A stretch of DNA of 64,000 bases from Bacilli bacterium (GCA_024408505.1 JAKSUZ010000002.1:65337-129336), one strand, 5' to 3'. Shown: positions 7,134-39,140, counted from the stretch's first letter. Notes: generated by a model not told the origin, from the sequence alone. Translations and numbers: made by a program.

Positions 7134-7146
7134 AATTTAATCTCCT

Positions 7147-9495: not shown

Positions 9496-9503
9496 GAATA
9501 AAT

Positions 9504-11605: not shown

Positions 11606-11650
11606 AATATTACCTCCAATAAGATATCATAATTATATCATGACATTATT

Positions 11651-11682: not shown

Positions 11683-11697
11683 TTTCTAATAGATTAA

Positions 11698-13122: not shown

Positions 13123-13135
13123 AATCTAATCTCCT

Positions 13136-14488: not shown

Positions 14489-14532
14489 ACATTATCCCTC
14501 CAATATTCCATAGAAATAAGCATCTAACTTAA

Positions 14533-15684
14533 TTATTTTTGTGTTTTTGCAAACAAATCTCCGTGTCTTTCGCGAAGAAGATTATAGAGTAAAACCACAA
14601 TACAAACCGCTCCAACCGCAAGTGTATTGGTGGTCGCAGCGCTTAAAATGGCTTTGTAACCATTGCCATAGAATGTTTCAACCAGTGAACGAGATAAGAC
14701 ACCACAGACGACTGACATAATAATCATAGTGTCAACCGAAATCCATAACATCACTCGTCTATTGGTGAAAGTGTTATAAATCGCAAAGAATAAAGAAACA
14801 ATCGTTAAAGAACCAGTAATAATTGCTGGAATAGCGTAACCACGAATTGCCACTAATACCTCGTACGAACCAGATATATAGGCTTTAGTAACGATATCAA
14901 AAATGTTTTGGTGATAGACAATAGCGTATGGTTCAGTAGCTGTATAATCCATGTAAGAATAATTTAAGTAACTTGATGTACCGACGAAGGCCACAACAAT
15001 TAATAAAGCGGTCGCAATTCTAAAGGTAATGTATCTTGTTAAATCAACATTATCTACTTTTTCAAGTTGCGGTGCCTCTTCCATGGCAACACCAATTATT
15101 CCGAAAATTAGACCCAAAATAATTAAAATTGAACCCCATCCCATGTTAGTGAAAACTTTTCCACCAGTGAAAGGGTTGTATTCAGAATTATAGAAGTTGA
15201 ATCTAACTAAAACGAGATATTGCAAAGCGGGAATAAAAGAAAATAAGAACATCTTGCGTGAGGATAAAGTCGCAAATTTATTGTTATGGTAGGATTGAAA
15301 TATTTTGATGGCGCACACAATCATAGTGATAGCAATGCCACCAATCGCAACCATGCAAGAAATACCTAAAACAAGGCATCTAAACATTGTAAAACCATAA
15401 CCAGCTAGGTTAGATCCGTGATAGGCTAAGAGTTCAACCCACATCTTATCGAAGAAATAAAGAAAATCGGCATCATAATGCACTTGGGTTTCTGGTAAAA
15501 TGCCTTGAATATTGCACAAAATCGGGCCAAAAACCCCAACAAAAGTCAAAGCGAAAAACAGCACCATTGCAAGCTTTGAAAATAGCTTTATGCCAAGGAC
15601 TCTAATTCCTCTAAAACGATATCCGCAATTCGCACAACGAATACTGCCATCTGGGTTATTTGTATGACATTTTGGGCATTCCAT
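14533..15684 (-). CDS. polytopic membrane protein with an N-terminal zinc ribbon
   Basis: MECPKCHTNNPDGSIRCANCGYRF followed by about 9-10 TM helices. Start set at the ATG at 15684 (ORF-track start 15741). Confidence 0.6.
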   Translation of the reverse strand: MECPKCHTNNPDGSIRCANCGYRFRGIRVLGIKLFSKLAMVLFFALTFVGVFGPILCNIQGILPETQVHYDADFLYFFDKMWVELLAYHGSNLAGYGFTMFRCLVLGISCMVAIGGIAITMIVCAIKIFQSYHNNKFATLSSRKMFLFSFIPALQYLVLVRFNFYNSEYNPFTGGKVFTNMGWGSILIILGLIFGIIGVAMEEAPQLEKVDNVDLTRYITFRIATALLIVVAFVGTSSYLNYSYMDYTATEPYAIVYHQNIFDIVTKAYISGSYEVLVAIRGYAIPAIITGSLTIVSLFFAIYNTFTNRRVMLWISVDTMIIMSVVCGVLSRSLVETFYGNGYKAILSAATTNTLAVGAVCIVVLLYNLLRERHGDLFAKTQK

Positions 15685-15811
15685 AATACACCTCGCAAAA
15701 ACTCGATTACCATTATAACAAGACAGTTTTCCTCTTGTCAATTATATTGACAATTAATCAAAAACTCAATAAACTTAAATCATAGTATTTTATAATATTG
15801 GGAGTTTTGTT

Positions 15812-20765: not shown

Positions 20766-21626
20766 TTACATTTCTACATCTTCGTAATAATATGAGTAAT
20801 CGATGCCTTTAATTATTAATTTACGATTAACAAAATCTTTAGTTAATGCTTGATTAACAAGATTAAATATCGGTTTTGCATTAGTCGGACTGACTTTCAT
20901 CGCCTTAAAGTAATTCTCCTTGCTGATTTTTGACCAATCTACACATTGTTTTAAATTCTTAATTAATATTTGATCTAGCCAAATACGTGTTGCACGACCA
21001 TTTCCTTCCATAAACGGATGGGCAATGTTCATTTCAACGTATTTATCAATTATCTTTTTAAGATTATCTTCAGGCATTTTATCAATCTTTTTTAATGTGT
21101 CTTTAAGATATAAAACGTTTGCAAAAACAAAACCATCTTTAGAAATGTTCTTTCTTCTAATCTTACCAGCAAAATCATAAAGACCGGCAAATATAAAAGC
21201 ATGGATTTGCTGTAATCCTTCAGTTGTGCCAACCTCTATGTCCTTAATTAAATTAGAAGTGACTAACTCAATCGCTTTCTTTTTACTTTCTTGATCTAAC
21301 GGATCATTACCGCCGCTTAACCATTCTTGAAGGTTTTTTCTTTGTGAATGCGGTAATATTTCTATTAATATTTTTACACCATCACTAGTCAAACAATCAG
21401 TGTCATAAGCTTTTCCATCCGCTGCTTTTAATTTCAGTTGCCTACAATTTGTAGACAACTCATGGTTTCTTGATTTTAAAGCATACCAATATTTGCGTGG
21501 ATTATCAGTAGATATTGCTGCTTTGATTAAATCAACTGCGCATAAAAACCATTCCGAAGTTGCTTGATTCCAACGAGCTCTAACCGGCTTAGAATTGTAA
21601 TATCTAATCGAAGTTTTTTCTTTCAT
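20766..21626 (-). CDS. Bro-N-like DNA-binding domain fused to a Fic (AMPylase-type) domain
   Basis: Canonical Fic motif HPFMEGNGRATR. N-terminal PVRARWNQATSEWFLCAVDLIKA... resembles Bro-N/antirepressor-type domains. The extreme C-terminus is SYYYED. Confidence 0.75.
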   Translation of the reverse strand: MKEKTSIRYYNSKPVRARWNQATSEWFLCAVDLIKAAISTDNPRKYWYALKSRNHELSTNCRQLKLKAADGKAYDTDCLTSDGVKILIEILPHSQRKNLQEWLSGGNDPLDQESKKKAIELVTSNLIKDIEVGTTEGLQQIHAFIFAGLYDFAGKIRRKNISKDGFVFANVLYLKDTLKKIDKMPEDNLKKIIDKYVEMNIAHPFMEGNGRATRIWLDQILIKNLKQCVDWSKISKENYFKAMKVSPTNAKPIFNLVNQALTKDFVNRKLIIKGIDYSYYYEDVEM

Positions 21627-26778: not shown

Positions 26779-27689
26779 CTATTTACGTTGCTTATTTAGT
26801 TTTTTAAAGGATAATTCAAATCCTTGATCCACTAAGATGTAGGTTAAATAAGTAAACAAGGTACCGAAGGCGACATCGGTTAAGAAATGTTTACCCGTGT
26901 GGATACGGTTATATCCATAGAGAATTACATATGCACAAGAAAGTCCAAAGATACATAAACCATAGTCTTGTTAGATTTCTTAACGTTGCTAATAAACAAA
27001 GGATACATGCATGCAATCGTAGCAATAGTCATATTAATACTTGGCCAACTTCTAAGGCCATCAGTACTACCAGCTGTATACGGAGCCCATTCCCACCAAT
27101 TTTTGAAAGTAATACCAGCTTCTTTAGCTTCTTCAGTAATTAGATAACTATAACGTGGTCTAGATGATAGTTGTTTAAACCATGAGTTAAAGCAATCACT
27201 AGCAATTCCCGCTATTAAAATAGTTGCACCAACTGCAATCAAACGTTCGGGATGAGAATCATCGATTATAAAGTAACACACTACTGGTACCCATGCATAA
27301 ATAAGAGTCCAAATTAAGATATTAACAAACCATACACCGGTAAAATCGCCAAGCGCACTACGAAGTTTTGATCCGTTATAATTATCGGAATAATAAACCG
27401 CTAAGAATACGGAAATTATTAATAATGTCCAAGCTAGGAAGGTATAATTACCTCCTTTCTTTTTAAAGGCTTTGAATAAACACATACCTGCAGCAGGATA
27501 TAAACAATAAGAAATGATTGAACCATAAGTAGCGAAGTGATCGCCTATAGTAGTTTTATTATATAAGGCAACATTAATATCAAAGTCAATAAAAGATCCT
27601 ACTAATATAGAAATTAATAAAATGCCTAAAATACTTAGAGCACAAATTATCGGCATACCTAATACATTACGTTTTAAAAATTTATTCAT
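26779..27689 (-). pseudogene. PAP2-family phosphatase gene interrupted by a frameshift
   Basis: The 254-aa ORF (26925-27689) ends before PAP2 motif 3. Motif 3 (YNRIHTGKHFLTDVAFG) continues in another frame down to the stop at 26779-26781. The frame switch must lie within 26928-26970. Motif 2 reads WPSINM instead of PSGH. Confidence 0.65.
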
Positions 27690-27730: not shown

Positions 27731-27756
27731 AAAAAAATGGTCGGAACAGTGGGTTT
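27731..27756 (-). repeat. displaced copy 1 of the tRNA-Pro 3' end (att-like)
   Basis: 27738-27753 TGGTCGGAACAGTGGG is identical to 34548-34563 (tRNA 3' end) and shares the same A7 run. Confidence 0.9.
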
Positions 27757-27849
27757 ACATAAGGTTCTAACCATTTTTGATATTATTTTACATTTCCTTA
27801 CTTTATATATAATAAGGATTACAATTTCATATCCACAAGATACAGAAAA

Positions 27850-28956
27850 TTAAATACAGAAAGCAGGGGCGATAGAGTGTGGGGCCGTTGAACCATCTAA
27901 ATTCATGATGCCGGTTTCATAAATGCGGTATACATATCTATTATTTTTTGTATAAGGCGAGCGAAGCCAATAATTGTAACCATTATCGCCATCGACTATT
28001 TTTTTAATTCGATAAGTTTTGTCTTCGTCCGTATCTCCACTATGTCCTTTATAATATTCATAAATGCCTGCTTCACCAGGAGTAACATAATCATAATAGG
28101 TACCGCTGTGATTATGAATTTCATCATATGCTAATAGGAAAAGTTTAGGATAAGTAAACCCATCAAAAGATGTAGCCTTAAAATTATCCCTTCCTTCAAT
28201 TTCTTCTTCATTAACACCTACTAATTTATTAACTGGTTTAATTATTCCTTCTTTTCTTAAATCATCAGGCAGTTGACTAAAAACACCTATACCATCTTCT
28301 GCGTTTAAAAAGCCGTTAATGTCGGATTGGCGATAATCACAGTTATTGGTTTCATCCCAAACATAAGGAAAAGGACCAGTTTTATCTCCCTTTGTAAGAA
28401 GTTCTACAAATTCAAAGGTAATACCAGCCTTACCAGAACCATCTGCTAAATCATCGTGATTGAAATCGATAATTCTTACGGTATGAGCAAAACTTTGACC
28501 TTTTAGTGTTACTGCCTTGGTATCACCAACTTTAAAGAATTCGTCTGCTCTACCAGTCGCAGATATTTCAGCAATCTCATCCCAAGATGAAGTTTCTAAA
28601 TCTTTGTGATAGGTCGAACCGGCTGCGGTAACAGTTAAGTTTCCAACAACAGGAATAAAGATATTACCCCCTGAATACTTGTATTCAACAGTTTCATCCG
28701 TTCCTGTCTTTTTAATAGAAATATTAGATTTCAAAGGAACTTTAAATGGTTTGTTACCTTCAAAATGAAATTCTTTATATAAGGATTGAGCAGGGTCAAC
28801 AGCAGGAACTGTAACGCTGGTAACTTCTTTATCACTTTCATCAAAGGCTTTACAATCCGTACAATTGAAAGTAATTGTGTAAGTAGGTTCAGGTTTAGAA
28901 CCACCACAACTTAAAAGCATCAAAGGTGCTAATAATAAAATTAGTTTTTTCTTCAT
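27850..28956 (-). CDS. lipoprotein A1 with a C-terminal DUF6273-like domain
   Basis: MKKKLILLLAPLMLLSC lipobox. C-terminus ...YNYWLRSPY...APAFCI. Start set at the MKKK ATG (28956) because the upstream ATG lies inside a TGTATAAT box. Confidence 0.75.
   Translation of the reverse strand: MKKKLILLLAPLMLLSCGGSKPEPTYTITFNCTDCKAFDESDKEVTSVTVPAVDPAQSLYKEFHFEGNKPFKVPLKSNISIKKTGTDETVEYKYSGGNIFIPVVGNLTVTAAGSTYHKDLETSSWDEIAEISATGRADEFFKVGDTKAVTLKGQSFAHTVRIIDFNHDDLADGSGKAGITFEFVELLTKGDKTGPFPYVWDETNNCDYRQSDINGFLNAEDGIGVFSQLPDDLRKEGIIKPVNKLVGVNEEEIEGRDNFKATSFDGFTYPKLFLLAYDEIHNHSGTYYDYVTPGEAGIYEYYKGHSGDTDEDKTYRIKKIVDGDNGYNYWLRSPYTKNNRYVYRIYETGIMNLDGSTAPHSIAPAFCI
28418..28599 (-). repeat. 182-bp tract 100 percent identical to 31504-31685
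   Basis: Read base by base. The flanks of the two paralogs are clearly diverged. Confidence 0.9.
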
Positions 28957-28962
28957 ACCACT

Positions 28963-28970
28963 ATTATACA
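28963..28970 (-). promoter_or_regulatory. TGTATAAT box 6 nt upstream of ATG 28956
   Basis: TGTATAAT-N6-ATG with no SD. Confidence 0.45.
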
Positions 28971-29002
28971 TAGTTTTATTTTATAAATAAAAATGTAGAA
29001 AA

Positions 29003-29611
29003 TTAAATCGTTGGAGAAGGTGGTTCGATTTTATCGTAGGTATATGTAACATTTTCCTTAACAACTTTTCCTAAAATAGGACTAATTTTAATACACTTAG
29101 AAAGTTTTTTATTTAAAAATTGATACAGTGAAACAGCAACATCAATATCCGTATAAGAGTAAGTTGTATATTCTTTTCTTTCTTCACTATAGTAAAAATC
29201 ACTGTATTCTTTTTCTCTAACCTTTTTAAATGCTTCATCTACATATTCGGAAATTGTTTTAAAATCACCTTCTTTATATGTATCAGGCGTAAATGGTTCT
29301 TCTTTGCTGTGTCGCTCATATTTAGAATAATTATCGCCATCTTTCAAAACGAGAATTTCAGTATACATATCGCTCCATTCATTTGAATGATGATAACTTG
29401 TAGGTGTGAATTCATATATAGCCAAACCTTCTTCATACCCTTCCCCTTCCTGAGTAATACTAAATTGTAAATACTCAACATCTTTCATAGCGAAAGCATC
29501 TTTCATTTCTTGTTCGGTTACGGTGTATTCATCCTTTTGTGGATTATTATTTCCACAACTCGCAAGTAGCGAAATCGCCATTAAAGGCATAACAAATAAA
29601 ATCTTCTTCAT
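29003..29611 (-). CDS. lipoprotein B1 (partner family, ends ...YDKIEPPSPTI)
   Basis: MKKILFVMPLMAISLLASC lipobox. Paralog of 32090-32983. Confidence 0.7.
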   Translation of the reverse strand: MKKILFVMPLMAISLLASCGNNNPQKDEYTVTEQEMKDAFAMKDVEYLQFSITQEGEGYEEGLAIYEFTPTSYHHSNEWSDMYTEILVLKDGDNYSKYERHSKEEPFTPDTYKEGDFKTISEYVDEAFKKVREKEYSDFYYSEERKEYTTYSYTDIDVAVSLYQFLNKKLSKCIKISPILGKVVKENVTYTYDKIEPPSPTI

Positions 29612-29617
29612 ATTTTT

Positions 29618-29625
29618 ATTATACA
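29618..29625 (-). promoter_or_regulatory. TGTATAAT box 6 nt upstream of ATG 29611
   Basis: TGTATAAT-N6-ATG with no SD. Confidence 0.45.
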
Positions 29626-29643
29626 TTGTTTTATTTTATAAAT

Positions 29644-29667
29644 AAAAATGGTCGGAACAGTGGGTTA
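29644..29667 (-). repeat. displaced copy 2 of the tRNA-Pro 3' end (att-like)
   Basis: 29649-29664 TGGTCGGAACAGTGGG, preceded by A5. Confidence 0.9.
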
Positions 29668-29739
29668 TATGGGGGAATATAAATTTTCATTGATAATTTT
29701 CAAATTCGTTTAATTATATCTGAATTTCTTTAATTTTAT

Positions 29740-30411
29740 TTAAAAATCATTAATAGAAAATAGTGACGTTAGGTTATTATCGGATATAGCTTTATTGATT
29801 TTCTTTTTCCAGGATTTAGGTAGATTACTAAATAATCTTTTAAGTTCATTTAAATAAGTAGGATATTTATTAATAAACTGCATTAATTCGGTTATGGATG
29901 AAATGTCTTTCTCAGCTTTATCTTTCCTTTGACTATTGATTAATAATTTTTGTAAAACATATATAGCGGGATGAATTACTTTAACCTTTACTCCTTTATA
30001 ATTGACTTCTAAATAGTTGTTATTAAAGATATCTACATATGGTAACGATTCAGCGTATATTTTGGTTTTTCCTAATTCAATCGTGCTTAAGCGATTACGA
30101 TTTAATTTTGTTAAAAACTCTACAGTAAAGCCGTCTGGAGAAATAAATTTGGATTTATTACTACCCATATCGTAAGTTATATCGTAATTAATATTCTTAA
30201 ATGAGTTAATTACACTATTCTTTTCACAAACGCTTTTAGGATTAGGAACATAAAAATCAACATCCACGGTCATAATGGTTGGTCGATAATTCTTAAAAAG
30301 CTCTCGATAAATAACCATCGCCCAAGATCCAATAAGAATTAGATCATTCAAAACTTCTTCTTTACCTAAAGTATTTAATAATTCTATCAATTTCTCTTCA
30401 TTCTCAATCAT
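29740..30411 (-). CDS. minimal nucleotidyltransferase-fold protein (AbiEii/GSU2403-like), putative toxin or effector
   Basis: LILIGSWAMVIY...TVDVDFYV fits the G[SG]...DxD Pol-beta-type NTase signature. 223 aa. Overlaps the upstream small gene by 8 nt. Confidence 0.5.
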   Translation of the reverse strand: MIENEEKLIELLNTLGKEEVLNDLILIGSWAMVIYRELFKNYRPTIMTVDVDFYVPNPKSVCEKNSVINSFKNINYDITYDMGSNKSKFISPDGFTVEFLTKLNRNRLSTIELGKTKIYAESLPYVDIFNNNYLEVNYKGVKVKVIHPAIYVLQKLLINSQRKDKAEKDISSITELMQFINKYPTYLNELKRLFSNLPKSWKKKINKAISDNNLTSLFSINDF

Positions 30412-30715
30412 AAATTCGATATACTCTCTCCAATTTCTTTAATTCGATTTTAGCGATTCTTAAATTATTCTTTATTCTTTTATATTCTTTGGCTTGATTA
30501 ATCGCTTCTCTTGCTTTAGGCGAATTAGCCTTACCTATATATTTAGAAATAACTTTCCCGTTTTCTTTATATTTACGGTACACAAACGATTGATTGTTAA
30601 TCTTAGCAATATAAATGCTACCACGTGGTAAAGACACTAGCGATCTTTCATATACGCTAACATTTTCTTTAAGTCTATTGACTTCTTCTTTTAAAACATT
30701 CGAAATAACACTCAT
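30404..30715 (-). CDS. small coiled-coil partner protein (103 aa), putative antitoxin or regulator
   Basis: MSVISNVLKEEVNRLKEN...LPRGSIYIAKINNQSFVYRKYKENGKVISKYIGK... flanked by Lys/Glu-rich helices. Start at 30715, 6 nt after a TGTATAAT box. Confidence 0.45.
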   Translation of the reverse strand: MSVISNVLKEEVNRLKENVSVYERSLVSLPRGSIYIAKINNQSFVYRKYKENGKVISKYIGKANSPKAREAINQAKEYKRIKNNLRIAKIELKKLERVYRIYD

Positions 30716-30721
30716 ATCGTT

Positions 30722-30729
30722 ATTATACA
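30722..30729 (-). promoter_or_regulatory. TGTATAAT box 6 nt upstream of ATG 30715
   Basis: TGTATAAT-N6-ATG with no SD. Confidence 0.45.
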
Positions 30730-30770
30730 ACTTTTAATTGAAAATACAATAAGGTTGTATAAATATTTTT

Positions 30771-30797
30771 AAAAAAATGGTCGGAACAGTGGGTTTA
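30771..30797 (-). repeat. displaced copy 3 of the tRNA-Pro 3' end (att-like; retains part of the T-arm)
   Basis: 30778-30793 TGGTCGGAACAGTGGG preceded by A7. Flanking GGGTTTAACCCAAG resembles the T-arm GGGATTCGAACCCAC. Confidence 0.9.
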
Positions 30798-30902
30798 ACC
30801 CAAGTTCATTATTTTTTTTAGTATTTTTTAGTATTCTTTACCTTTATATATAAGGATTATTAGAAATTGATGTCTAAAAATTGTAGAAAATCGTGTAGAA
30901 AA

Positions 30903-32042
30903 TTAAATACAGAAAGCAGGGGCAACAGGACGCGTATTATAGAAAACTGCGTAGTTGTCGAAATAGCCCTCTTTGTAGACATACCACGCGTAGGTATCAT
31001 TTTCTGTGTAAGGCGAGCGCAACCAATAAATTTCTCCTGTATTGCCGTCAACTTTCTTTTTAACTCGATAAGCCTTATCTTCAGCAGCATCCCCTCCATG
31101 TCCTTCATAATATTTATAAATACCACCACCAGTGGCTGGGTTACCTGCTTCGCCAGGAGTTACATATGGTTTTGTGCCTTCAAGATTATGTAACTCGTTA
31201 TATGCTAACGGGAAAAGTTTAGGACATTTATCTTCTTCAAATGGAGTAGCAATATAATTTTGCCCTTCATCAGTAGATACACCCACTAATTTATTAACTG
31301 GTTTTATTATTCCTTCCTTACTTAAATCATCAGGAAGCATATTGATAACACTCACAGTACCTTCAGTTTCATCGTTTAAAAAGGTATTAAGAACAGATTG
31401 GCGATAATCAAAATTATCACCACTAACAATATATTCACCATCCCAGATAGTAGTATATACATTAGTTTTATCATCTTTAGTAATTACATTCGCAAACTCA
31501 AATGTAATACCAGCCTTACCAGAACCATCTGCTAAATCATCGTGATTGAAATCGATAATTCTTACGGTATGAGCAAAACTTTGACCTTTTAGTGTTACTG
31601 CCTTGGTATCACCAACTTTAAAGAATTCGTCTGCTCTACCAGTCGCAGATATTTCAGCAATCTCATCCCAAGATGAAGTTTCTAAGTCCTTTGAATAAGA
31701 TGAGCCAATAGCAGTAACAGTTAAATTTCCAACAATAGGAACGGATATCGTTCCGTTCACATATTTATGCTTAACAATTTCTTCTGTTCCGGTTTTCTTA
31801 ATAGCAATATCCGATTTCAAAGGAACTTTAAATGGTTTATTACCTTCAAAATGAAATTCTTTATACAAGGACAGAGTAGGGTCAACAGCAGGAACTGTAA
31901 CGCTGGTAACTTCATTATCACTTTCATCATAGGCTCTACAATCCGTACAATTAAAAGTGATTGTATAAGTGGGTTCAGGTTTAGAACCACCACAACTTAA
32001 AAGCATCATAGGTGCTAATAATAAAATTAGTTTTTTCTTCAT
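30903..32042 (-). CDS. lipoprotein A2 with a C-terminal DUF6273-like domain
   Basis: MKKKLILLLAPMMLLSC. Paralog of A1. C-terminus ...IYWLRSPY...VAPAFCI. Confidence 0.75.
   Translation of the reverse strand: MKKKLILLLAPMMLLSCGGSKPEPTYTITFNCTDCRAYDESDNEVTSVTVPAVDPTLSLYKEFHFEGNKPFKVPLKSDIAIKKTGTEEIVKHKYVNGTISVPIVGNLTVTAIGSSYSKDLETSSWDEIAEISATGRADEFFKVGDTKAVTLKGQSFAHTVRIIDFNHDDLADGSGKAGITFEFANVITKDDKTNVYTTIWDGEYIVSGDNFDYRQSVLNTFLNDETEGTVSVINMLPDDLSKEGIIKPVNKLVGVSTDEGQNYIATPFEEDKCPKLFPLAYNELHNLEGTKPYVTPGEAGNPATGGGIYKYYEGHGGDAAEDKAYRVKKKVDGNTGEIYWLRSPYTENDTYAWYVYKEGYFDNYAVFYNTRPVAPAFCI
31504..31685 (-). repeat. 182-bp tract 100 percent identical to 28418-28599
   Basis: Read base by base. Confidence 0.9.
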
Positions 32043-32048
32043 ACCACT

Positions 32049-32056
32049 ATTATACA
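32049..32056 (-). promoter_or_regulatory. TGTATAAT box 6 nt upstream of ATG 32042
   Basis: TGTATAAT-N6-ATG with no SD. Confidence 0.45.
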
Positions 32057-32089
32057 TAGTTTTATTTTACAAATAAAAATTGTAGAAAA

Positions 32090-32983
32090 TTAAATCGTTG
32101 GAGATGGTGGTTCGATTTTATCGTAAGAGAAGGAAAATTCATGTCTCGTAAGGTTGCCTGAGGTATAATCTGAAACAGCACATTTGTTAATTTGCTTATT
32201 ATAAAACTGACTTAATATGACTGTCATAAGACTATCTTGGGTTAAATAAGCCATATATTCCTTTTTTGCCACATTATAATAATAATCTTCATATTTTATA
32301 TTTTTAAATTTCAAAAAATAATCTTCGGCGAATTCACTAATTGTTAGAAATTTACCTGTATACTCAGTGGGTGTAAACGGATTTCCTTCATTTGAACGCT
32401 CATATTGATGATAATTTTCGCCATCTTTAATAATGAGTGTTTCATAATAAGATGGGCTTTTGTATATCACATGATTGCTGGTTGGCGTAAAATTCATTGC
32501 TACCTTATATGTTTCAACACCAGATTTAAAATTAACATTTGTGGTTTGTAAATATTCAACATCTTTCATAGCATAAGCATCTTTCATTTCTTGTTCATCT
32601 ACTTTGAAATCATCTTCAGGTCTCTTCACACTACGCGCGTTTATCGTAACATCCGCGGTCATTTTAATTGTGATAGAACCATCAGTTTCGCTATATCTCC
32701 AAGTACCAGAGAATTCGCCACCATCTATTAACGTAACATCAACTATATCTTGTTTAGGAACATCATATTCTATGTTTTTACCAGCAATAAAGTAATAAAT
32801 AATCTGCCCTGATACAAATTCTTTATCTTCAGTTACTTGCTTCTTATTCTCATCAAGCAAGATACAATCCATGCCATTAAAGTGAAGTTTATGTTTAACT
32901 GTTGTTGGCTCAGGAGTTTTTCCACCACAACTCGCAAGTAGCGAAATGGCCATTAAAGGCATAACAAATACAATCTTTTTCAT
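32090..32983 (-). CDS. lipoprotein B2 (B1 paralog with an extra N-terminal Ig-like module)
   Basis: MKKIVFVMPLMAISLLASC. Same ...YDKIEPPSPTI ending. About 110 aa inserted after the lipobox resemble the N-terminal module of A1/A2. Confidence 0.7.
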   Translation of the reverse strand: MKKIVFVMPLMAISLLASCGGKTPEPTTVKHKLHFNGMDCILLDENKKQVTEDKEFVSGQIIYYFIAGKNIEYDVPKQDIVDVTLIDGGEFSGTWRYSETDGSITIKMTADVTINARSVKRPEDDFKVDEQEMKDAYAMKDVEYLQTTNVNFKSGVETYKVAMNFTPTSNHVIYKSPSYYETLIIKDGENYHQYERSNEGNPFTPTEYTGKFLTISEFAEDYFLKFKNIKYEDYYYNVAKKEYMAYLTQDSLMTVILSQFYNKQINKCAVSDYTSGNLTRHEFSFSYDKIEPPSPTI

Positions 32984-32989
32984 ATTTTT

Positions 32990-32997
32990 ATTATACA
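32990..32997 (-). promoter_or_regulatory. TGTATAAT box 6 nt upstream of ATG 32983
   Basis: TGTATAAT-N6-ATG with no SD. Confidence 0.45.
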
Positions 32998-33122
32998 TTG
33001 TTTTTGCTGGCACAGATTTTAATAAAAATTTTTGTGCCAACACAATATATTTATTAATAAATTAATAAAATTAAATGTACTTTCCCCAATTCTTTTGTCT
33101 TGGGTTTATGAATTAACACCTA

Positions 33123-33953
33123 TTATATCATTCCATAGTTATTTATTCTATATTCAGATGGACTCATTTTTAATCTATTAACTATACGCTCGTTATTGTA
33201 ATAGTTAATGTAGTTGATTATTGCATGAACTAACATTTCTTTATTTTTGTATAGATGCTCTTTTCCATAAAACATTTCTTCTTTCATTCTTCCAAAGAAA
33301 TTTTCGGTTGGAGAATTATCTAAGCAGTTTCCTTTTCTTGACATCGATTGAATTATTCTTAATTCTTTCAATTTATCTCGATATCTATCTATTTGATACT
33401 GCCACCCCTGATCAGAATGAAGGATTGAATTTTGGTAATTCAAAGGATGTCTTTCTTTTAACATCTTGAACATTCTGATTATTTGTCTAAAGTCAGGATT
33501 TTCGGAAATATCATACGCTACAATTTCACGAGTATGGAAATCAATTATCGGTGATAAGTAAATTCGACCAAAAGGCATAATAAATACTGTTATATCGGTT
33601 CCTAATTTTTCAAATGGATAAGATGTTTTAAAGTTGCGATCTAATAAATTAGGGGCAACTTTGCCAACTGTTCCTAGATAAGACACATAACGTCTTTTCT
33701 TTGGTCGCGCTTTTAAATTTAATTTATTCATTAAGCGTTCGACTCTCTTGTGATTTATTTTATGATATCCTAATTTATCTAATTCTTTATTAAGCGCAAT
33801 CGTAATGCGAGGAATACCATATTTTGAATAATTCTTTTTAAAAATTCTTATTATCATTTTCTCATATAAAGCATCTTTATTATCTTTATCGTTAAAATGT
33901 TTATCTTCATAGTAGTAAATTTGTTTAGAAATACCTGATAGAGAAAGAAGCAA
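33123..33953 (-). CDS. IS3-family transposase OrfB (DDE/rve integrase core)
   Basis: The HSDQGWQY and GNCLDNSPTENFFGRMK blocks are typical of rve-domain transposases. The frame stays open upstream into the orfA overlap. Confidence 0.85.
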   Translation of the reverse strand: MLLSLSGISKQIYYYEDKHFNDKDNKDALYEKMIIRIFKKNYSKYGIPRITIALNKELDKLGYHKINHKRVERLMNKLNLKARPKKRRYVSYLGTVGKVAPNLLDRNFKTSYPFEKLGTDITVFIMPFGRIYLSPIIDFHTREIVAYDISENPDFRQIIRMFKMLKERHPLNYQNSILHSDQGWQYQIDRYRDKLKELRIIQSMSRKGNCLDNSPTENFFGRMKEEMFYGKEHLYKNKEMLVHAIINYINYYNNERIVNRLKMSPSEYRINNYGMI

Positions 33954-33991
33954 TTTAAATTGATATTTACCCCGGAGTTCTCGAACAATCT

Positions 33992-34486
33992 TTACTTTTT
34001 CTTTGATTGTTTGCTTCTTGCGAGAATCTGGGGAAATGATTTTTTTAAGTATTCATTCTCCGCTTTTGTTCTTTCTAGATCTTCTAATAATTTTTTATAT
34101 TCTTTCTCGAGAACTTTATCATCATGATGTTTATACGCTTCTCGCGAATAAGTATCTTTAATCGCCGCTTCGCCTTTTCGCTTATATATTAAAACCCAAT
34201 CCGAAACAATCTTTGGATTAGTTAACATCATGTCTAAAGCCACTTCACGATAAGACTTTTTTCCGGATATAATAGCTTCAATACACGCTAACTTGTCTTT
34301 TCGTGTATAAGTCATTCTATCAACTGATTGTTTAAAAGCCTTGTCACCATATCTTTGATATAAGTTGCAGCAATACTTAAGCGTAGTTCTATCCACGCCA
34401 TAGGTTTTTGATACTTCTTCAAATGATAGGCCTTCATTAAGATGCAATTTAACGCATCGCAGCTTTTCCTCTAATGTTGTTTTCAT
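33992..34486 (-). CDS. IS3-family transposase OrfA (HTH)
   Basis: AGGAGGG RBS before MKTTLEEKL. HTH and leucine-zipper-like C-terminus. GAAAAAG slippery-like run at 33995-34001, immediately before the stop, with orfB in the -1 frame. Confidence 0.8.
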   Translation of the reverse strand: MKTTLEEKLRCVKLHLNEGLSFEEVSKTYGVDRTTLKYCCNLYQRYGDKAFKQSVDRMTYTRKDKLACIEAIISGKKSYREVALDMMLTNPKIVSDWVLIYKRKGEAAIKDTYSREAYKHHDDKVLEKEYKKLLEDLERTKAENEYLKKSFPQILARSKQSKKK

Positions 34487-34547
34487 AAAAAATTCCCTCC
34501 TAATCATAACCCATGAGGGCAAAATTATGGGGGAAATTTCAAAAAAA

Positions 34548-34624
34548 TGGTCGGAACAGTGGGATTCGAACCCACGACCTCTTGGTCCCGAACCAAGCGC
34601 ACTACCAAGCTGTGCTATGTCCCG
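34548..34624 (-). tRNA. tRNA-Pro (anticodon CGG), CCA encoded
   Basis: Manual cloverleaf: acceptor CGGGACA/UGUUCCG, D-stem GCAC/GUGC, anticodon stem CUUGG/CCAAG with loop UUCGGGA, T-arm GUGGG-UUCGAAU-CCCAC, discriminator A, CCA. Total 77 nt. Confidence 0.9.
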
Positions 34625-34646: not shown

Positions 34647-37600
34647 TTAATAAGAAAAATCAAACAAAGATACTTGATCAGACTCTTTCATATCTTTAAA
34701 TGTATTCATGCTTTGAAGCTTTTTAAAGTGTTTCTCACTAATAGGAGCGCGATCTTTAAAGTCTTCTACACTTGTAAATGCTTTGGCTTCTCTAGCCTTA
34801 ATAATTCCTTCCGCAACGTTATCGCCTAAACCATCAAGAACAATAAACGGAGGAATTAGTGCATTATGTTCTTCATCAATGACGAAGTCTTTGGCGAGTG
34901 ATTTATTAATATCAATGTTTGCGAACTTAAATCCACGTTCACACATCTCAAGCGCCATTTCTAGAGTCGATAGTATATCAACTTCTTTATTAGATAACTT
35001 CTCTTTGCTTTCTTTCTTTTCATTTAAATATTTAATTCGATTCTTAATCGCTTCCATTCCCATTACCATCGTATCAATATCGTATTGATCGCTTCTAGTT
35101 GAGAAATAAACTGCATAGAACGCGAGTGGATAATAAACTTTAAAGTATCCAACACGGACCGCTTGAGTAACATACGCTGTAGCGTGTGCTCTTGGGAATA
35201 GATATTTAATCTTATTGCACGATTCAATATAGAATTCAGGAACTTCATGCATCTTCATTTCTTCCATATATTCTTTTTTAAGCCCACGACCTTTACGAAC
35301 ATCTTCCATGACTTTAAATGAAATATCATTCGGAACACCTTTGCTCATTAAATAAGTCATGATATCGTCACGACATCCAATAATATCCATTAATGAATGA
35401 GCGGTTCCATTTAATAATAATGATTCAGCATTATTTACCCACACATCAGTACCATGCGTAATACCAGAGACCACTAATAAATCATTAAAGGTTTTTGGTT
35501 TAGCAGTTTGTAACACGCTTTGAACAAAGTTCGTACCAAATTCAGGTAATCCTAATGTACCAGTTTTGGCTTCTAAGAAATTTTCTTTAAGTCCTAACGC
35601 AACCGGAGATGAGAATAAAGATAAAACACGTCTATCCCCTAACGGAATCTTTCTAAAATCAATTTTAGTAATCTCACCCATCATCTTTAATGCAAGTGGA
35701 TCTTTATGTCCTAATAAGTCGAGTTTAAGAACGGTATCGTGAATCGTTGAGAATTCAAAGTGAGTTGTTTCCCAGTTTGCGGTTTTATCATCAGCTGGGT
35801 GTTGAATCGGCGTAAAGTCATGCACATCAAATTCCTTTGGAATTAAGATAATGCCACCTGGATGTTGACCGGTAGTCTTTTTAACACCGACGCATTTACT
35901 CGCTAAATAGAATTGATATGCAAGTGGAACTTCATTTAATTGTTTATGTTCACTACGCATAATGTAATCTTTAACACAACCTAGTGCCATCTTATCTTTA
36001 TATGTACCAATTGTTCCGGCTCTAAAGACATGGTCGCGACCAAATCTTTCTCTTAAGTAATCGTGCGCTCGACCTTGATATACATCAGCGAAGTTTAAAT
36101 CAATATCAGGAATCTTAGTACTCTTCTCATCAAAGCCTAGGAAGGTTTCAAATGGAATGTTCTGCCCGTTCGCTTCCATCTTTTGATGACAATCAGGACA
36201 ATCTCTATCTGGTAAATCAACGCCTGAAGGATGTTCTTTAGAATCCGCCCATTCTAATCTTTTACATTTTGGGCAATAGTAATGAGGCGGCAGAGGATTA
36301 ACTTCCGTTATTCCTAATAAATACGCGACTAAAGAAGAACCAACTGAACCACGACTACCAACAAAGTAACCATCATCATTAGCTTTCTTAACAATCTCTT
36401 CGGCTAATAAGTAGTTAACAGCGTAACTAGCCTTATCACCAATAATTCTTGAGAACTCTTTTGTTAGACGCGAAGATATTTCAATTGGTAGAGGATCACC
36501 ATATAATTCTTTGGCTCTTTTCTCAGCGCGATCTCTTAAATTATCATCCGCGTTTTCAATCTTAGGTGTATATAGTCTATCTTTAACGGGATATAACTCT
36601 TCACACATATCTGCAATCTTATTTGTGTTAGTGATAACAATCTCTTTTGCTTTATCTTCGCCTAAGAATTTAAATTCATCTAACATCTCTTGAGTGGTTC
36701 TAAAATATTGATCACCACTAGGATGATAGATGTGTTTATCAACACTACCTCTTGGGTTTGTGCATAATGGGTGCGCACGATGGTTAATACCATCCGTAGC
36801 GATATAAACTTCACGGAAAATTTTATCTTCTTTATTTAAATAGTGGACATCTCCAGTTGCGCATACTGGAATATGTAATTCATCAGCTTCCGCAATGATA
36901 TCTTTTAATGTACGGATGATTTCTTCATCGCTTTTAAGTTCTGGCATTGGAGTAGCGACTCTTTTACCAGTAACGATATCCATCTTCGAATATCTACATT
37001 TATGTAGAAGCGGACGATAACAATCTAATGGTTGAATTTCAATGTAATCATAAAATTTCATCGCTTTGCTTAATACTTTTTTAGTTCTAGTATGCGCTAG
37101 TTCAAACACTTCACCATTAAGACACGCTGAACCGATAATTAAATTCTCTCTTACTTTTTCAATTTCATCTCTTGGCACTTTAGGAACTTCTGCTAAATAA
37201 GTAAGATGTGACATGGTGATTAATCTAAATAGATCTTTTAATCCTTGTGCGTTCTTTGCGAATACTACTACATGACTAGGACGCATATGCTTAAACATAT
37301 CAATCGATGTTTCTAATTTATTTAAATCACTATGAAGCATCTTTGGTTTATCTTTTAAGAAGTTACCTAAAATAGTTGTCCACACGTCTCCTAGCACTTT
37401 CGCATCGAAGTCCGCACGGTGAGCTTTATCATCATCATAAACATCAAGTTCAAGACGTTTAGATAGGCTCGCTAGGGTATGTGATTTAGCATCCGAAAAT
37501 AAATATCTAGATAAAGATAAGGTATCTATAACTGGATTACGAATCACATCTAATCCCATTCTTTCTAATTCACCATTTAGGAATGAAATATCGAACACTG

Positions 37601-39140
37601 TATTATGCGTAACAATAATTGCATCACCAATAAATTCTTTAATCTTTGGCCATACTTCTTTAAATGTTGGCTTATCCTTTAGCATCTCGTCAGTGATATG
37701 GGTTAATGATTTAGTGCCTTCACTTAACTTAACACCTGGATTAATTAAAATATCGATATTATCAATTGGTAAGTCATCTTTAATTTTAACTGCGCCGAAT
37801 TCGATAACACGGTCATAACGAGCGGATAATCCGGTTGTTTCTAAGTCAAGACATACATAAGTTGCGTTACTTAATGGAACATCGGCTTCATTAAAAATAT
37901 AGTGAAGTTTTCGATCTACCATATATAACTCAGCGCCATAAAGCATTTTAATTCCTTCTTTTTTCGCGGCTTTTTGCGCATAGGGGAATGCTTGGACTAC
38001 ACCATGATCAGTTAGAGCTACTGCTTTATGACCAAAGTGTTTTGCTAAAGCAATATAGTCTTCTATGGTATTAACGCCATCAAGTTGTGACATATTAGTG
38101 TGTAGATGTAATTCAACACGTTTTTCTTCCGCTTTATCCGTACGCTTAAATTCGGTAGGAAGAATATCAAGTTCGTGCACCAAAATCGATAATTCGTTTG
38201 TGCGAGGATCAAGTTCAGCAGTGCCGCGGATTCTTGCATGGGTAAAAATACGTTTATCACGTTTAGCATAATTGCTTTCTAATATAGCTAGGCGTTCAAA
38301 TGGGCAGCCGCCTTTACTCTCAGGAGTTTTTTCATAAGCTCTAAAGCTAATCGCACTAATATAGTTGCCGATACCACCAACAATAAATTTTCTACCAAAT
38401 TTATTAGTGCGCATTATTGCTTCATAAACTTCACCATCAATATCAACATTAGTTTGACCTTCTTTTGGAATATCAAAGAAGTTTTTATATTCTTTATAAT
38501 TGCCGCGCTTATAAGATGAAGAATTTTTTCTTCTCTCTTTTTTCATTTGACGGAGATTTTCTTCCATCTCCGCTAAATAGATTTTTTCTGCTCTTTCAAC
38601 TTTCTTTTGGTGTTCTTCTTCTTTATCGATTTCATCAAGTTCAGCGTTCTTACTAGAAATAATAGTTTCTAAGCTTTGAGTCGCTGGCATAATTAAATCT
38701 TCAAGTGGTAAAGTTTTAACTCTTAAACCTAAAGACAAGAACTTTAATAAATCAATAAACTCATTAATGATATATTCGTTCTTTTTTCTCTCTTCAGTAT
38801 TAATAAAGGTAAAGGTTAAAACATTTTCATCTAATTTCATTTTGCCTTTAAACGGAAAATGGAAATGATCAAGATGCCAATCATTAAAAAGTGATTCTAA
38901 TTCTTCAAATGTTGAGTGACGCTTGTAAGAGAAATTTAGTTTATAAGGATACTTAATTTCTTTTAAGGCATTAATAAATTCAGTTAGTTGTTGGTAAGAG
39001 AAAGGCGTATCCTTCGCAATCATCATGACCCACATGTTTTTTGCGAAACTATCTTTATATAAAGCATCGAACTCCATATCAAAACGATTTGGATCTAATT
39101 TAATGGATTGAAGGAAGCGCGTCATCTTTTCACTTTTCAT
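34647..39140 (-). CDS. polC: DNA polymerase III alpha subunit, PolC type
   Basis: 1497 aa. PHP motif HLHTNMSQLDG. Inserted DEDD exonuclease (CLDLETTGL ... HNTVFD ... HRADFDA). Pol III alpha core. Conserved rseP-polC synteny. Confidence 0.97.
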   Translation of the reverse strand: MKSEKMTRFLQSIKLDPNRFDMEFDALYKDSFAKNMWVMMIAKDTPFSYQQLTEFINALKEIKYPYKLNFSYKRHSTFEELESLFNDWHLDHFHFPFKGKMKLDENVLTFTFINTEERKKNEYIINEFIDLLKFLSLGLRVKTLPLEDLIMPATQSLETIISSKNAELDEIDKEEEHQKKVERAEKIYLAEMEENLRQMKKERRKNSSSYKRGNYKEYKNFFDIPKEGQTNVDIDGEVYEAIMRTNKFGRKFIVGGIGNYISAISFRAYEKTPESKGGCPFERLAILESNYAKRDKRIFTHARIRGTAELDPRTNELSILVHELDILPTEFKRTDKAEEKRVELHLHTNMSQLDGVNTIEDYIALAKHFGHKAVALTDHGVVQAFPYAQKAAKKEGIKMLYGAELYMVDRKLHYIFNEADVPLSNATYVCLDLETTGLSARYDRVIEFGAVKIKDDLPIDNIDILINPGVKLSEGTKSLTHITDEMLKDKPTFKEVWPKIKEFIGDAIIVTHNTVFDISFLNGELERMGLDVIRNPVIDTLSLSRYLFSDAKSHTLASLSKRLELDVYDDDKAHRADFDAKVLGDVWTTILGNFLKDKPKMLHSDLNKLETSIDMFKHMRPSHVVVFAKNAQGLKDLFRLITMSHLTYLAEVPKVPRDEIEKVRENLIIGSACLNGEVFELAHTRTKKVLSKAMKFYDYIEIQPLDCYRPLLHKCRYSKMDIVTGKRVATPMPELKSDEEIIRTLKDIIAEADELHIPVCATGDVHYLNKEDKIFREVYIATDGINHRAHPLCTNPRGSVDKHIYHPSGDQYFRTTQEMLDEFKFLGEDKAKEIVITNTNKIADMCEELYPVKDRLYTPKIENADDNLRDRAEKRAKELYGDPLPIEISSRLTKEFSRIIGDKASYAVNYLLAEEIVKKANDDGYFVGSRGSVGSSLVAYLLGITEVNPLPPHYYCPKCKRLEWADSKEHPSGVDLPDRDCPDCHQKMEANGQNIPFETFLGFDEKSTKIPDIDLNFADVYQGRAHDYLRERFGRDHVFRAGTIGTYKDKMALGCVKDYIMRSEHKQLNEVPLAYQFYLASKCVGVKKTTGQHPGGIILIPKEFDVHDFTPIQHPADDKTANWETTHFEFSTIHDTVLKLDLLGHKDPLALKMMGEITKIDFRKIPLGDRRVLSLFSSPVALGLKENFLEAKTGTLGLPEFGTNFVQSVLQTAKPKTFNDLLVVSGITHGTDVWVNNAESLLLNGTAHSLMDIIGCRDDIMTYLMSKGVPNDISFKVMEDVRKGRGLKKEYMEEMKMHEVPEFYIESCNKIKYLFPRAHATAYVTQAVRVGYFKVYYPLAFYAVYFSTRSDQYDIDTMVMGMEAIKNRIKYLNEKKESKEKLSNKEVDILSTLEMALEMCERGFKFANIDINKSLAKDFVIDEEHNALIPPFIVLDGLGDNVAEGIIKAREAKAFTSVEDFKDRAPISEKHFKKLQSMNTFKDMKESDQVSLFDFSY

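Follow-up and report, generated by a model that had tools for sequence, protein, structure and literature searches.

The 64-kb window analyzed here (the whole stretch of DNA, 64,000 nucleotides) contains an array of small gene cassettes behind a tRNA-Pro gene, with displaced copies of the tRNA 3′ end at the cassette boundaries. We will argue that these copies are probably att scars of the serial site-specific integration of integrase-less mini-cassettes, which resemble cis-mobilizable elements (CIMEs) and would be mobilised in trans. This reading is based on the specificity of the repeat, the intact tRNA, the repeat-bounded indels among relatives, the recurrence of these cassette families at further anchors, and the integrase of an element, L130, found at one of those anchors. 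An initial annotation had already interpreted the locus as serial accretion of islets at a tRNA attB site, and the polymorphic arrays with breakpoints in the repeats, the cassettes at other anchors and the L130 integrase all speak in favor of that interpretation.

Results and Discussion

The repeat is a 16-mer, TGGTCGGAACAGTGGG, which is found on the plus strand at 27738, 29649, 30778 and 34548. The four copies are exact and all direct, compared to 0.02 matches expected by shuffling, and no further copy was found in the 64-kb window with up to two mismatches permitted. The copy at 34548-34563 constitutes the final 16 nucleotides of a tRNA-Pro(CGG) gene (34548..34624, minus strand), i.e. the T-stem 3′ strand, the acceptor 3′ strand and ACCA, and the gene is intact according to ARAGORN and Rfam (RF00005, 67.8 bits). 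A run of five to seven T (T5-T7) comes directly after each copy when the gene strand is read. The previously made claims that the tRNA-Pro 3′ end recurs at three more sites in the same orientation, and that an A-run adjoins it, are thus confirmed. The displaced copies, all on the minus strand, are called c1 (27731..27753, the exact 16-mer at 27738-27753 plus T7), c2 (29644..29664, 29649-29664 plus T5) and c3 (30771..30793, 30778-30793 plus T7), and the distances between successive copies are 1911, 1129 and 3770 bp. Together with the T-run, the tRNA-Pro end makes up the block that is repeated, which is also the presumed attB. The same tRNA-Pro gene adjoins polC in the related genome L102.

Identical junctions are seen in L001 and L002, two Logan contigs of the same sample, which rules out a chimera of the MAG assembly. 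A search of 185,579 species genomes gave ca 100 matches to the 16-mer, which are attributable to chance apart from the window's own lineage. When the 16-mer is followed by a non-tRNA base, the matches are only chance coding ones in unrelated genomes and the true relative L102. The possibility of a generic dispersed repeat, which the initial annotation had raised, could therefore be rejected.

The array consists of three cassettes, all on the minus strand. Cassette 1 (27754..29643) holds the lipoprotein gene B1 (29003-29611) and the DUF6273 lipoprotein gene A1 (27850-28956). In cassette 2 (29665..30770), a small DUF6788-like gene (30404-30715) is combined with an NTP_transf_8 nucleotidyltransferase (NTase; 29740-30411), while cassette 3 (30794..33075, ca 2.3 kb without the insertion sequence discussed below) holds the lipoprotein gene B2 (32090-32983) and the DUF6273 lipoprotein gene A2 (30903-32042). 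The assignments are from Pfam, and the domain-family search gave no match for B1 and B2. At its distal side the array is flanked by a gene for a PAP2-family membrane protein (26780..27689, minus strand), assigned through the PAP2 domain of its L102 ortholog; in the window, this gene has an apparent frameshift near 26940.

The motif TGTATAAT-N6-ATG occurs five times in the 64 kb, compared to 0.24 expected, and all five occurrences are at cassette genes. With the ATG placed 6 nt past TATAAT, the corrected starts are 28956 for A1, 29611 for B1, 30715 for the small gene, 32042 for A2 and 32983 for B2. The promoter of cassette 2 contains in addition the inverted, operator-like repeats TATACAAC/GTTGTATA. 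The domain searches agree with the contents proposed earlier for the units (lipoprotein pairs, a two-gene NTase module and an IS3 element), and the motif at all five genes bears out the proposal that each unit has its own promoter. The cassettes are almost wholly coding and hold no remnants of integrase or transfer genes, so that they show no sign of simple decay from larger islands, a further point against the accretion reading.

B1A1 and B2A2 are paralogous, with promoters, signal peptides and parts of the 3′ UTRs in common. These features could be explained by amplification in situ, in which unequal crossing-over or segmental duplication would multiply the tRNA 3′ end together with the promoter and the lipoprotein pair, with no horizontal insertion. 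The proteins are, however, only 69% (A1 vs A2) and 45% (B1 vs B2) identical and hence not recent duplicates, the unrelated NTase and Fic cassettes have the same boundaries, and related cassettes are located at the tmRNA and GGGtGRT anchors of other genomes (see below). We consider this explanation very improbable. A1 and A2 also share an exact gene-conversion tract of 182 bp, which indicates that homologous recombination is active at the locus, and the A2 3′ UTR is homologous to that of the lipoprotein gene which precedes the NTase cassette in the relative L111.

Next to the tRNA lies an IS3-family insertion sequence (33076..34541, minus strand; NCBIfam transpos_IS3, 3e-74; rve and HTH domains), with orfA at about 33992-34486 and orfB at 33123-33953, both on the minus strand. 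It shows the features of the family, namely orfA/orfB, a DDE (rve) domain, inverted repeats of the TG...CA type (ca 40 nt, starting with TG) and a 3-bp target duplication, AAA, at 33073-33075 and 34542-34544. Since it has its own inverted repeats and its target duplication lies within the T-run, the IS3 is a later, secondary insertion just past the tRNA and no component of a cassette. The unit originally described as IS3 plus B2-A2 is thus correct in its contents, but the IS3 does not belong to it.

We now consider the variation of the array among relatives. In the window, the order is tRNA, IS3, B2A2, copy, NTase, copy, B1A1, copy, PAP2. In L102 and L117 it is tRNA, NTase, copy, PAP2, with the NTase as the sole cassette, and in L111 it is lipoprotein, copy, NTase (a pseudogene), copy, Fic, copy, acetyltransferase. 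Cassette 2 is accordingly present in all three relatives, while cassette 1 is missing in all three, with the repeats as the edges of the indel. Each difference from the window begins and ends within the 16-mer plus T-run, so that the presence/absence polymorphism is bounded by the tRNA fragment in every comparison. Judged from these breakpoints, the repeats are real recombination boundaries. The alignment suggested with the initial annotation thus reveals arrays that differ in both number and content of cassettes. Between the window and L102, the identity is 93.3% for cassette 2, 89.1% for polC and 80.3% for PAP2. The PAP2 flank is itself variable, as PAP2 is missing in L111 and has a GNAT acetyltransferase behind it in L102. 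Its left junction reads T6-7 and then ATTAAAAA(A)GCATATAAT in both the window and L102, with a different partner upstream.

It should be pointed out that some of these observations weigh against accretion at the tRNA. The gain or loss of B1A1 (window) and of Fic (L111) took place at internal copies downstream of the NTase and not at the tRNA itself, which implies either that displaced copies are recombination-competent or that a larger ancestor has undergone differential deletion. Homologous recombination could equally give deletions bounded by repeats of 21-23 bp.

It has also been suggested that the tRNA-end fragment and its U-run have taken on the role of a terminator or insulator between the cassettes, maintained by selection, a scenario that is compatible with an integrative origin. 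The three displaced copies in the window are exact (3/3), and for c1 and c3 an upstream complement exists, so that an A-run/stem/T-run hairpin can form (−11.8 and −12.3 kcal mol−1, respectively); the partner of c1 is AAAAATGGTtaGAAC. These hairpins are A/T-extended, however, and not the G+C-rich stem-loops with a U-run of intrinsic terminators. The copy behind the NTase cassette, c2, lacks a hairpin partner in every genome compared (−0.5 to −6 kcal mol−1), ACCA lies between any acceptor-type stem and the T-run, and a generic consensus scan of the gene strand called no terminator at any of the three copies. Furthermore, orthologous copies gain mismatches: the c2 orthologs differ from the 16-mer at 0 (L102), 1 (L117) and 3 (L111) positions, and the L111 copies at 1-3. 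A general terminator role is thus not borne out and is quite unlikely, even taking into account that in the GGGtGRT arrays described next the anchor fragment does place a terminator hairpin right behind the preceding cassette.

Members of these cassette families also occur at other anchors in related gut Bacilli, where their edges are copies of the 3′ end of the anchor in question. In L129, an A-type lipoprotein (65% identical to A1) lies between the tmRNA 3′ end and a displaced, diverged copy of it, in which only a short core, CTCCACCA, is identical to the tmRNA. In L112 and L118, copies of the GGGtGRT gene 3′ end, 111-124 nt long, stand between NTase and RelB/ParE cassettes and bring the terminator hairpin of that gene directly past the stop codon of the preceding cassette; the long copies are 88-94% identical, and copies within one array 73-94%. 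Finally, the GGGtGRT anchor also hosts L130, a 12.2-kb element that codes for a tyrosine integrase, a repressor and a D5-type primase and has a 62-nt copy of the gene end on either side. The GGGtGRT anchor is accordingly assigned, from sequence, as attB for a tyrosine integrase. The displaced copies in general appear to be element-borne rather than target duplications, as they extend upstream as diverged anchor homology (GGGTTAAA upstream of c3, similar to GGGTTCGAAT of the tRNA T-arm; a diverged T-arm in L129) and as identity within one GGGtGRT array is only 73-94%.

These arrays also bear on two further mechanisms. Casposons target tRNA-Pro 3′ ends and create duplications of 14-15 bp, and a casposon-like transposition, with staggered cuts around the tRNA 3′ end, could in principle create the 16-nt repeat as a target duplication. 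The sharp left edge of the identity block, at the first nucleotide of the T-stem 3′ strand, and the same cassette families at different anchors would fit such a process. The duplications of 111-124 nt and the diverged copies in L112, L118 and L129 are, on the other hand, incompatible with staggered cuts, inverted repeats at the cassette ends score at or under the shuffle means, and the scanned genes include no Cas1 or cassette transposase, only the unrelated IS3. Of the options considered, we give this one the least credence.

The other mechanism is RecA-dependent homologous recombination only, in which circles or linear fragments would integrate Campbell-style through the anchor 3′ segment and be lost between direct repeats, with no dedicated recombinase. 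The GGGtGRT repeats are long and similar enough for RecA (111-124 nt, 88-94%), the window is without an integrase, every indel is repeat-bounded, and the 182-bp conversion tract points in the same direction. The tRNA-Pro block is only 21-23 bp, however, which is marginal for RecA-dependent integration, and the first gain of an anchor fragment by a cassette is left unexplained. Moreover, the short identical core in L129 is of the attP/attB style and atypical of homologous exchange, and the GGGtGRT anchor is used by a tyrosine-integrase element. We therefore regard homologous recombination as an unlikely sole cause.

The search for a recombinase covered the 9 array genes and 30 further genes of the window (Pfam/NCBIfam). 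No integrase was found, in line with the initial annotation, and the only recombinase-type match was the IS3 DDE transposase. No integrase-bearing element with the tRNA-Pro block was found in IMG/VR, phage and plasmid collections, nor an empty site, with the tRNA directly adjoining PAP2, among the arrays compared. These three results weigh against site-specific accretion.

The favored accretion mechanism can be outlined as follows. A cassette would arrive as a small circle carrying the last 16 nt of the tRNA and the T-run, with one or two genes and their own leaderless-type promoter as cargo. The tRNA 3′ end, or a copy displaced earlier, would serve as the recombination partner of the circle, whereby the tRNA is restored and the old 3′ end is shifted downstream. 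Lacking a recombinase, the cassettes would behave as miniature CIMEs or as leftover cargo of shuttle elements, and an enzyme encoded elsewhere, presumably a tyrosine integrase, would insert, excise or reshuffle them in trans. Plain deletion between the direct repeats would also be permitted, and the IS3 would have landed in the T-run afterwards. The sites may still be active, although orthologous copies drift at an approximately neutral rate (0, 0, 1 and 3 mismatches).

As a tentative extension, which we hold to be possible but doubtful, gut Bacilli of this lineage might have an integron-like cassette economy, in which recombinases unlinked to the arrays (L130-like shuttles or a host enzyme) move recombinase-less units at the 3′ ends of several anchors. 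The units would then be promoter-bearing, often of the leaderless type, and 0.7-2.3 kb in size, with surface lipoproteins, NTase, ParE and Fic as cargo, and tRNA-Pro, ssrA and GGGtGRT would be anchors that trade discrete cassettes. Displaced anchor ends would be live sites, and any copy in an array could take in or free a cassette.

Comparison with Known Systems

Integron arrays and the pdif modules of Acinetobacter consist of one- or two-gene cassettes without recombinase between repeated recombination sites. The present array is a functional analog, enriched in toxin-antitoxin-like and defence-like cargo. It differs in that the cassettes are promoter-bearing and the repeated site is the 3′ end of the anchor gene; there is no intI, attI or Pc, no tyrosine recombinase in the window, and no Xer/dif-like site. 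The boundaries have no attC-type palindromes either, with −0.5 to −6 kcal mol−1 at the NTase boundary and heterogeneous values at the others. L130 resembles PICI-like satellites, as its attB is the duplicated 3′ end of a conserved gene. It shares the GGGtGRT anchor with the NTase/ParE mini-cassette arrays, but it is 12 kb in size and has an integrase, a repressor and a primase, all three of which the window cassettes lack.

According to the Islander principle, a regenerated tDNA and a displaced 3′ fragment mark the ends of an island, and arrays of three or more account for 4/3919 islands in that survey (PMC4383910). The window likewise has an intact tDNA and cognate direct 3′ fragments at unit ends on the same replicon (four copies), with the identity block in the T-stem/acceptor. 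The Islander requires an integrase gene for each island of an array, whereas no tyrosine integrase is present among the array genes and the 30 further window genes, and the units are far below typical island size. The tycheposon islands of Prochlorococcus adjoin tRNA genes and hold scattered partial tRNAs from successive integrations (bioRxiv 10.1101/2020.12.28.424599). Newer arrivals displace older ones inward in these islands, as proposed for the present array, and cargo survives without a functional element. Tycheposons, however, have a tyrosine recombinase and a replication module, neither of which is seen here, and belong to another phylum; the cargo here consists of lipoproteins, NTase and Fic modules.

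A close counterpart is offered by the CIMEs and the tandem accretion at the 3′ ends of tRNA and protein genes in streptococcal ICE/IME systems (PMC5704250, and Pavlovic 2004 and Bellanger 2011 as cited there). CIMEs keep attL and attR without integration or transfer genes, and the integrase comes from another element (PMC5704250). Described CIMEs are decayed islands, mostly of many kb, while the present cassettes measure 1.1-2.3 kb, comprise one or two intact genes each and show no trace of an ICE/IME backbone. As for an origin by decay, no intact tRNA-Pro element was found, and the intact integrase element is at GGGtGRT. A cognate ICE/IME for this tRNA-Pro site is not known, and the host is an uncultured lineage of gut Bacilli. 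[quoted passage not shown]

Results

An intact tRNA-Pro(CGG) gene is located at 34548-34624 on the minus strand (ARAGORN; Rfam, 67.8 bits). The plus-strand 16-mer TGGTCGGAACAGTGGG starts at 27738, 29649, 30778 and 34548, i.e. four copies against 0.02 in shuffles, and a fifth copy was not found in the window with up to two mismatches permitted. The last of these, 34548-34563, forms the 3′ end of the tRNA gene. On the gene strand, the block CCCACTGTTCCGACCA is composed of CCCAC (3′ strand of the T-stem), TGTTCCG (3′ strand of the acceptor stem) and ACCA, and a run of five to seven T follows it directly in all four copies. The tRNA-Pro 3′-end repeat of the initial annotation, with three displaced copies in the same orientation, is thereby confirmed as four direct and exact copies beside an intact tRNA.

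The displaced copies match the tRNA only from CCCAC onward and do not have the T-loop in common, which places the crossover in the segment of acceptor stem, CCA and T-run; a T-loop crossover was rejected on these grounds. At the copy at 30778-30793 (c3), diverged homology to the tRNA goes on upstream of the identical block (GGGTTAAA vs GGGTTCGAAT). Two further readings were considered and discarded: retro-insertion of a mature tRNA, because the copies contain the T-run found downstream of CCA in the gene, and a primer-binding site read on the plus strand, since genes and copies are all co-oriented with the tRNA.

In 185,579 species, each represented by one genome, a search for the 16-mer with any following base except the A of the tRNA matched 103 stretches. 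All except one are single chance matches, mostly within coding sequence of unrelated high-GC genomes. The exception, L102, is a Bacilli metagenome-assembled genome from horse faeces, and it is a true relative, its polC being 89% identical to that of the window at the DNA level. The block is thus not a generic dispersed repeat, and this possible refutation of the initial reading does not apply. A metagenome scan for AAAAA plus the 16-mer gave only an unrelated tRNA-Pro adjoining a tRNA-Leu (L110). In IMG/VR, the exact 16-mer gave only chance matches and one phage tRNA, and the degenerate block followed by TTTT gave no match; phage sequences matched the tRNA 3′ half by blastn only at generic tRNA T-arms.

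On the minus strand, the order is polC (34647-39140), tRNA-Pro, an IS3 element (33076-34541), the lipoprotein genes B2 and A2, c3, a small gene and a nucleotidyltransferase (NTase) gene, the copy at 29649-29664 (c2), the lipoprotein genes B1 and A1, the copy at 27738-27753 (c1), and a PAP2-family gene. Every gene in the tract has the orientation of tRNA-Pro. The repeat-to-repeat units, without the insertion sequence, measure about 2.3, 1.13 and 1.91 kb, and each is nearly all coding sequence. The A2-c3-NTase-c2-B1 and A1-c1-PAP2 junctions are seen again in two Logan contigs from the same sample (L002 and L001), so the array is not an assembly chimera.

The IS3 element has inverted repeats of ~40 nt that begin with TG. 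Its 3-bp duplication, AAA on the plus strand, falls within the T-run, 3-6 nt past the CCA of the tRNA. It is a later insertion, outside any cassette. The division into three repeat-bounded units proposed earlier can be kept, but not the assignment of IS3 to the B2-A2 unit. At the cassette ends themselves, no terminal inverted repeats above chance were detected, and cassettes defined by such repeats were rejected. Their absence, together with copies that are long or diverged, also makes it scarcely credible that a transposition event itself created the duplications.

The PAP2-family gene (26780-27689) ends at 254 aa in the window, with an apparent frameshift near 26940 after which the frame resumes, out of frame, to about 26780. 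The L102 ortholog has ~307 aa with a PAP2 domain, and the window copy is either a pseudogene or affected by a sequencing error.

A1 and A2 are DUF6273 lipoproteins with 69% identity, and B1 and B2 are lipoproteins that are 45% identical in the C-terminal domain. The two A genes share an exact stretch of 182 bp (28418-28599 and 31504-31685), while the rest is ~79% identical, which indicates recent gene conversion between them. In-situ duplication would explain the paired lipoprotein genes as copies made at the locus; it is very improbable, given that the paralogs are diverged and that unrelated cassettes have identical boundaries. A third, larger DUF6273 protein (730 aa, 43724-45916) lies outside the array, its C-terminal domain being 35-40% identical to A1/A2. 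The A-family search also matched several further DUF6273 or InlB-repeat proteins of Bacilli metagenome-assembled genomes, and at least two of them, the paralogs P0108 and P0110, are on other contigs of the window's own genome (GCA_024500545.1).

In the NTase module, a small DUF6788-like gene precedes an NTP_transf_8 gene, with a promoter that has operator-like inverted repeats. In the 64-kb window, where 0.24 would be expected, there are five instances of TGTATAAT-N6-ATG, and every one is the start of a cassette gene: A1 (28954-28970), B1 (29609-29625), the small NTase-module gene (30713-30729), A2 (32040-32056) and B2 (32981-32997). That each unit carries its own promoter, as first suggested, thus extends to every cassette gene, and the exact motif has no other site in the window. 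With only 6 nt from TATAAT to ATG, the cassette mRNAs are predicted to be leaderless, without a Shine-Dalgarno sequence. The same design is found at a glpD-like gene (TGCTATAAT-N6-ATG at 26740) and at an acetyltransferase gene in L102 and in another array locus, L111. In sequence this AT-rich, generic scanning for sigma-70 promoters and terminators gave no useful information.

None of the NTase module, A1 and B1 was matched by PADLOC, which placed just the Fic/RhuM gene of L111, in the candidate defence family PDC-S23 (4e-122). Relatives of the NTase protein were not found in IMG/VR, INPHARED phages or PLSDB plasmids.

The array differs among relatives. In L102 the order is polC, tRNA-Pro, NTase cassette, displaced copy, PAP2 and acetyltransferase, and this layout recurs in L117, which comes from another sample and has one mismatch in the copy. 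L111, from a third sample, starts with a Flg_new lipoprotein gene, a copy (CCG end), the NTase cassette with a nonsense mutation and a copy with three mismatches, and goes on with the Fic/RhuM gene, a copy with two mismatches, the acetyltransferase and the glpD-like gene; PAP2 is absent. The premature stop in the L111 NTase gene (1715-2385) leaves 152 aa followed by a 47-aa ORF, so this cassette is decaying there.

The NTase cassette is thus common to all four loci, and its neighbours differ. Between the window and L102, identity is 93.3% for the NTase cassette, 89.1% for polC and 80.3% for PAP2. The right end of the NTase cassette, ...CCATATAA|CCCAC, is constant, and so is the left junction of PAP2, T6-7 followed by ATTAAAAA(A)GCATATAAT, with either NTase (L102) or A1 (window) as upstream partner. 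The switch points fall inside the 16-mer and its T-run. The alignment with relatives suggested at the outset hence reveals different cassette content, with breakpoints inside the block; an empty site was not found among the four relatives recovered. The 3′ UTR of A2 is homologous to that of the L111 lipoprotein gene upstream of NTase, which means that this slot has an occupant in two lineages but none in L102 and L117. Insertion or loss is seen at internal copies too, and not just next to the tRNA (B1-A1 in the window, Fic in L111).

Mismatches in the orthologous copies that follow NTase number 0, 0, 1 and 3, consistent with roughly neutral drift and no sign of selection on the motif. This bears on the alternative that the block serves as a terminator or insulator. 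Such a role is possible at c1 (−11.8 kcal/mol) and c3 (−12.3 kcal/mol), but it fails at the NTase copy (−0.5 to −6 kcal/mol) and does not agree with the drift, and we consider it quite improbable.

Members of the same cassette families are found at other anchors. At L129, the anchor is a tmRNA gene (Rfam): between its 3′ end and a displaced, diverged copy of that end (GGGTCGAGGGGTCAGTTGTCCCCCTCGACTCCACCA vs GGACAGGGGTTCAACTCCCCTCGGCTCCACCA at the tmRNA end) is an A-type lipoprotein gene with 65% identity to A1, which makes a one-gene cassette of ~1.35 kb without integrase. In two other gut Bacilli contigs, NTase-module homologs (53-59% identity) are arrayed with RelB(DUF6290)/ParE modules as mini-cassettes (L112, 25-2047; L118, 231-2244). 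Between neighbouring mini-cassettes lies a copy, 111-124 nt long, of a GGGtGRT gene's 3′ end (PF14057) with the terminator hairpin. The separator copies within one such array are just 73-94% identical. The hairpin has a conserved stem and a variable loop, and the last copy in L112 is fused to a different C-terminal extension (ORF 1947-2225). The cassette families are accordingly shared by three anchor genes in related uncultured gut Bacilli.

The GGGtGRT gene end is also occupied by a 12.2-kb PICI-like element, L130 (IMGVR_UViG_3300021255_001997, 1-12201), encoding a tyrosine integrase (PF00589), an HTH repressor, a D5-type (D5/DUF5906) primase-helicase and a sigma-70-like protein. It is flanked by 62-nt direct copies of the gene end as att repeats (74-135 and 12089-12150), which shows this anchor to be a real integrase target.

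Homologous (Campbell-type) recombination alone is compatible with the long GGGtGRT repeats and with all the deletions. The 21-23-bp tRNA block and the short core of identity in L129, however, sit poorly with it, and it is an unlikely explanation overall.

Other NTase homologs (L113, L119-L127) have ordinary contexts, with neither a tRNA in the vicinity nor anchor repeats on the flanks, so the module is not always part of an array. Many homologs are on contigs of ~1.0-1.4 kb, near the cassette length; assemblies could break at repeated or variable cassette flanks.

Among the nine array genes and 30 further window genes, no tyrosine or serine recombinase came up; the set takes in neither polC nor, among others, five genes at 54-60 kb in a stretch of pyrimidine biosynthesis. 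Within this set, the earlier remark that the window holds no integrase is borne out. A second accessory-looking stretch (7147-15741) contains genes for an HTH regulator, a WYL/WCX protein, a DUF2779 protein, two Flg_new (Listeria-Bacteroides repeat) proteins and a ParE toxin (11001-11360), and a separate Fic gene is at 20766-21626; anchor-type repeats were detected at neither. Near the window start there is a 68-nt direct duplication (350-417 and 504-571; 94% identical, 154-bp spacing).

Discussion

Repeated tRNA 3′ ends are textbook integration scars. In the tDNA integration signature, the element carries the 3′ part of the gene. The target is restored upon integration, with the displaced fragment left to mark where the element ends on its far side (PMC4383910). 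Integrase-less members of tandem integration arrays are known as CIMEs (PMC5704250), and partial tRNAs within Prochlorococcus islands have been taken as older integrations (bioRxiv 10.1101/2020.12.28.424599).

The displaced copies are probably scars of repeated site-specific integration at tRNA-Pro, by integrase-less cassettes moved in trans; the serial accretion of small islets proposed initially fits the signature. Each element would bring a copy of the tRNA 3′ part, regenerating an intact tRNA and displacing the old end, and repeated rounds would give a tandem array. The diverged homology upstream of the block (c3, and the diverged T-arm in L129) and the mutual divergence of copies in one GGGtGRT array argue that the copies are element-borne (attP-derived) and not made by insertion. 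As each cassette is clean and codes for no recombinase, the cassettes are probably moved in trans, the likely route being that they accrete with, and part from, integrase-bearing shuttle elements such as L130.

Active sites, a recombinase and circular intermediates are what we infer from this scheme. The predicted B1-A1 circle junction is ...CCTTATGTAAA-CCCACTGTTCCGACCA-TTTTTATTTATAAAATAAAAC, the corresponding deletion junction ...CCCCCATATAA-CCCACTGTTCCGACCA-TTTTTTTATTAAAAAAGC, and the NTase circle junction ...CCCCCATATAA-CCCACTGTTCCGACCA-TTTTTTTAAAAATATTTATAC. A more speculative proposal, which we regard as rather doubtful, is that the cassettes form an integron-like economy, driven in trans and with a live recombination site at each copy. 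If the sites are active, they would provide a poorly known gut lineage with a simple route to swap surface lipoproteins and defence/toxin modules, and would constitute a compact recombination system that is directly testable. If they are no more than scars, what remains is a tRNA-linked hotspot of the ordinary kind, albeit a tidy one.

To our knowledge, integrons have not been reported in Firmicutes-type bacteria, and we know of no described category there for arrays of very small, intact, integrase-less cassettes. The locus is not an integron, as IntI, attI and attC are all missing, and it is neither a casposon nor a transposon with terminal inverted repeats. ICE/IME remnants are lacking in the window cassettes, and the array lacks the one integrase per island that Islander requires for membership. 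It does work like a tandem tDNA island array or a CIME accretion. What is unusual is that the cassettes are very small and clean and have their own leaderless-type promoters, and that the same cassette families occur at three different anchors in one uncultured lineage.
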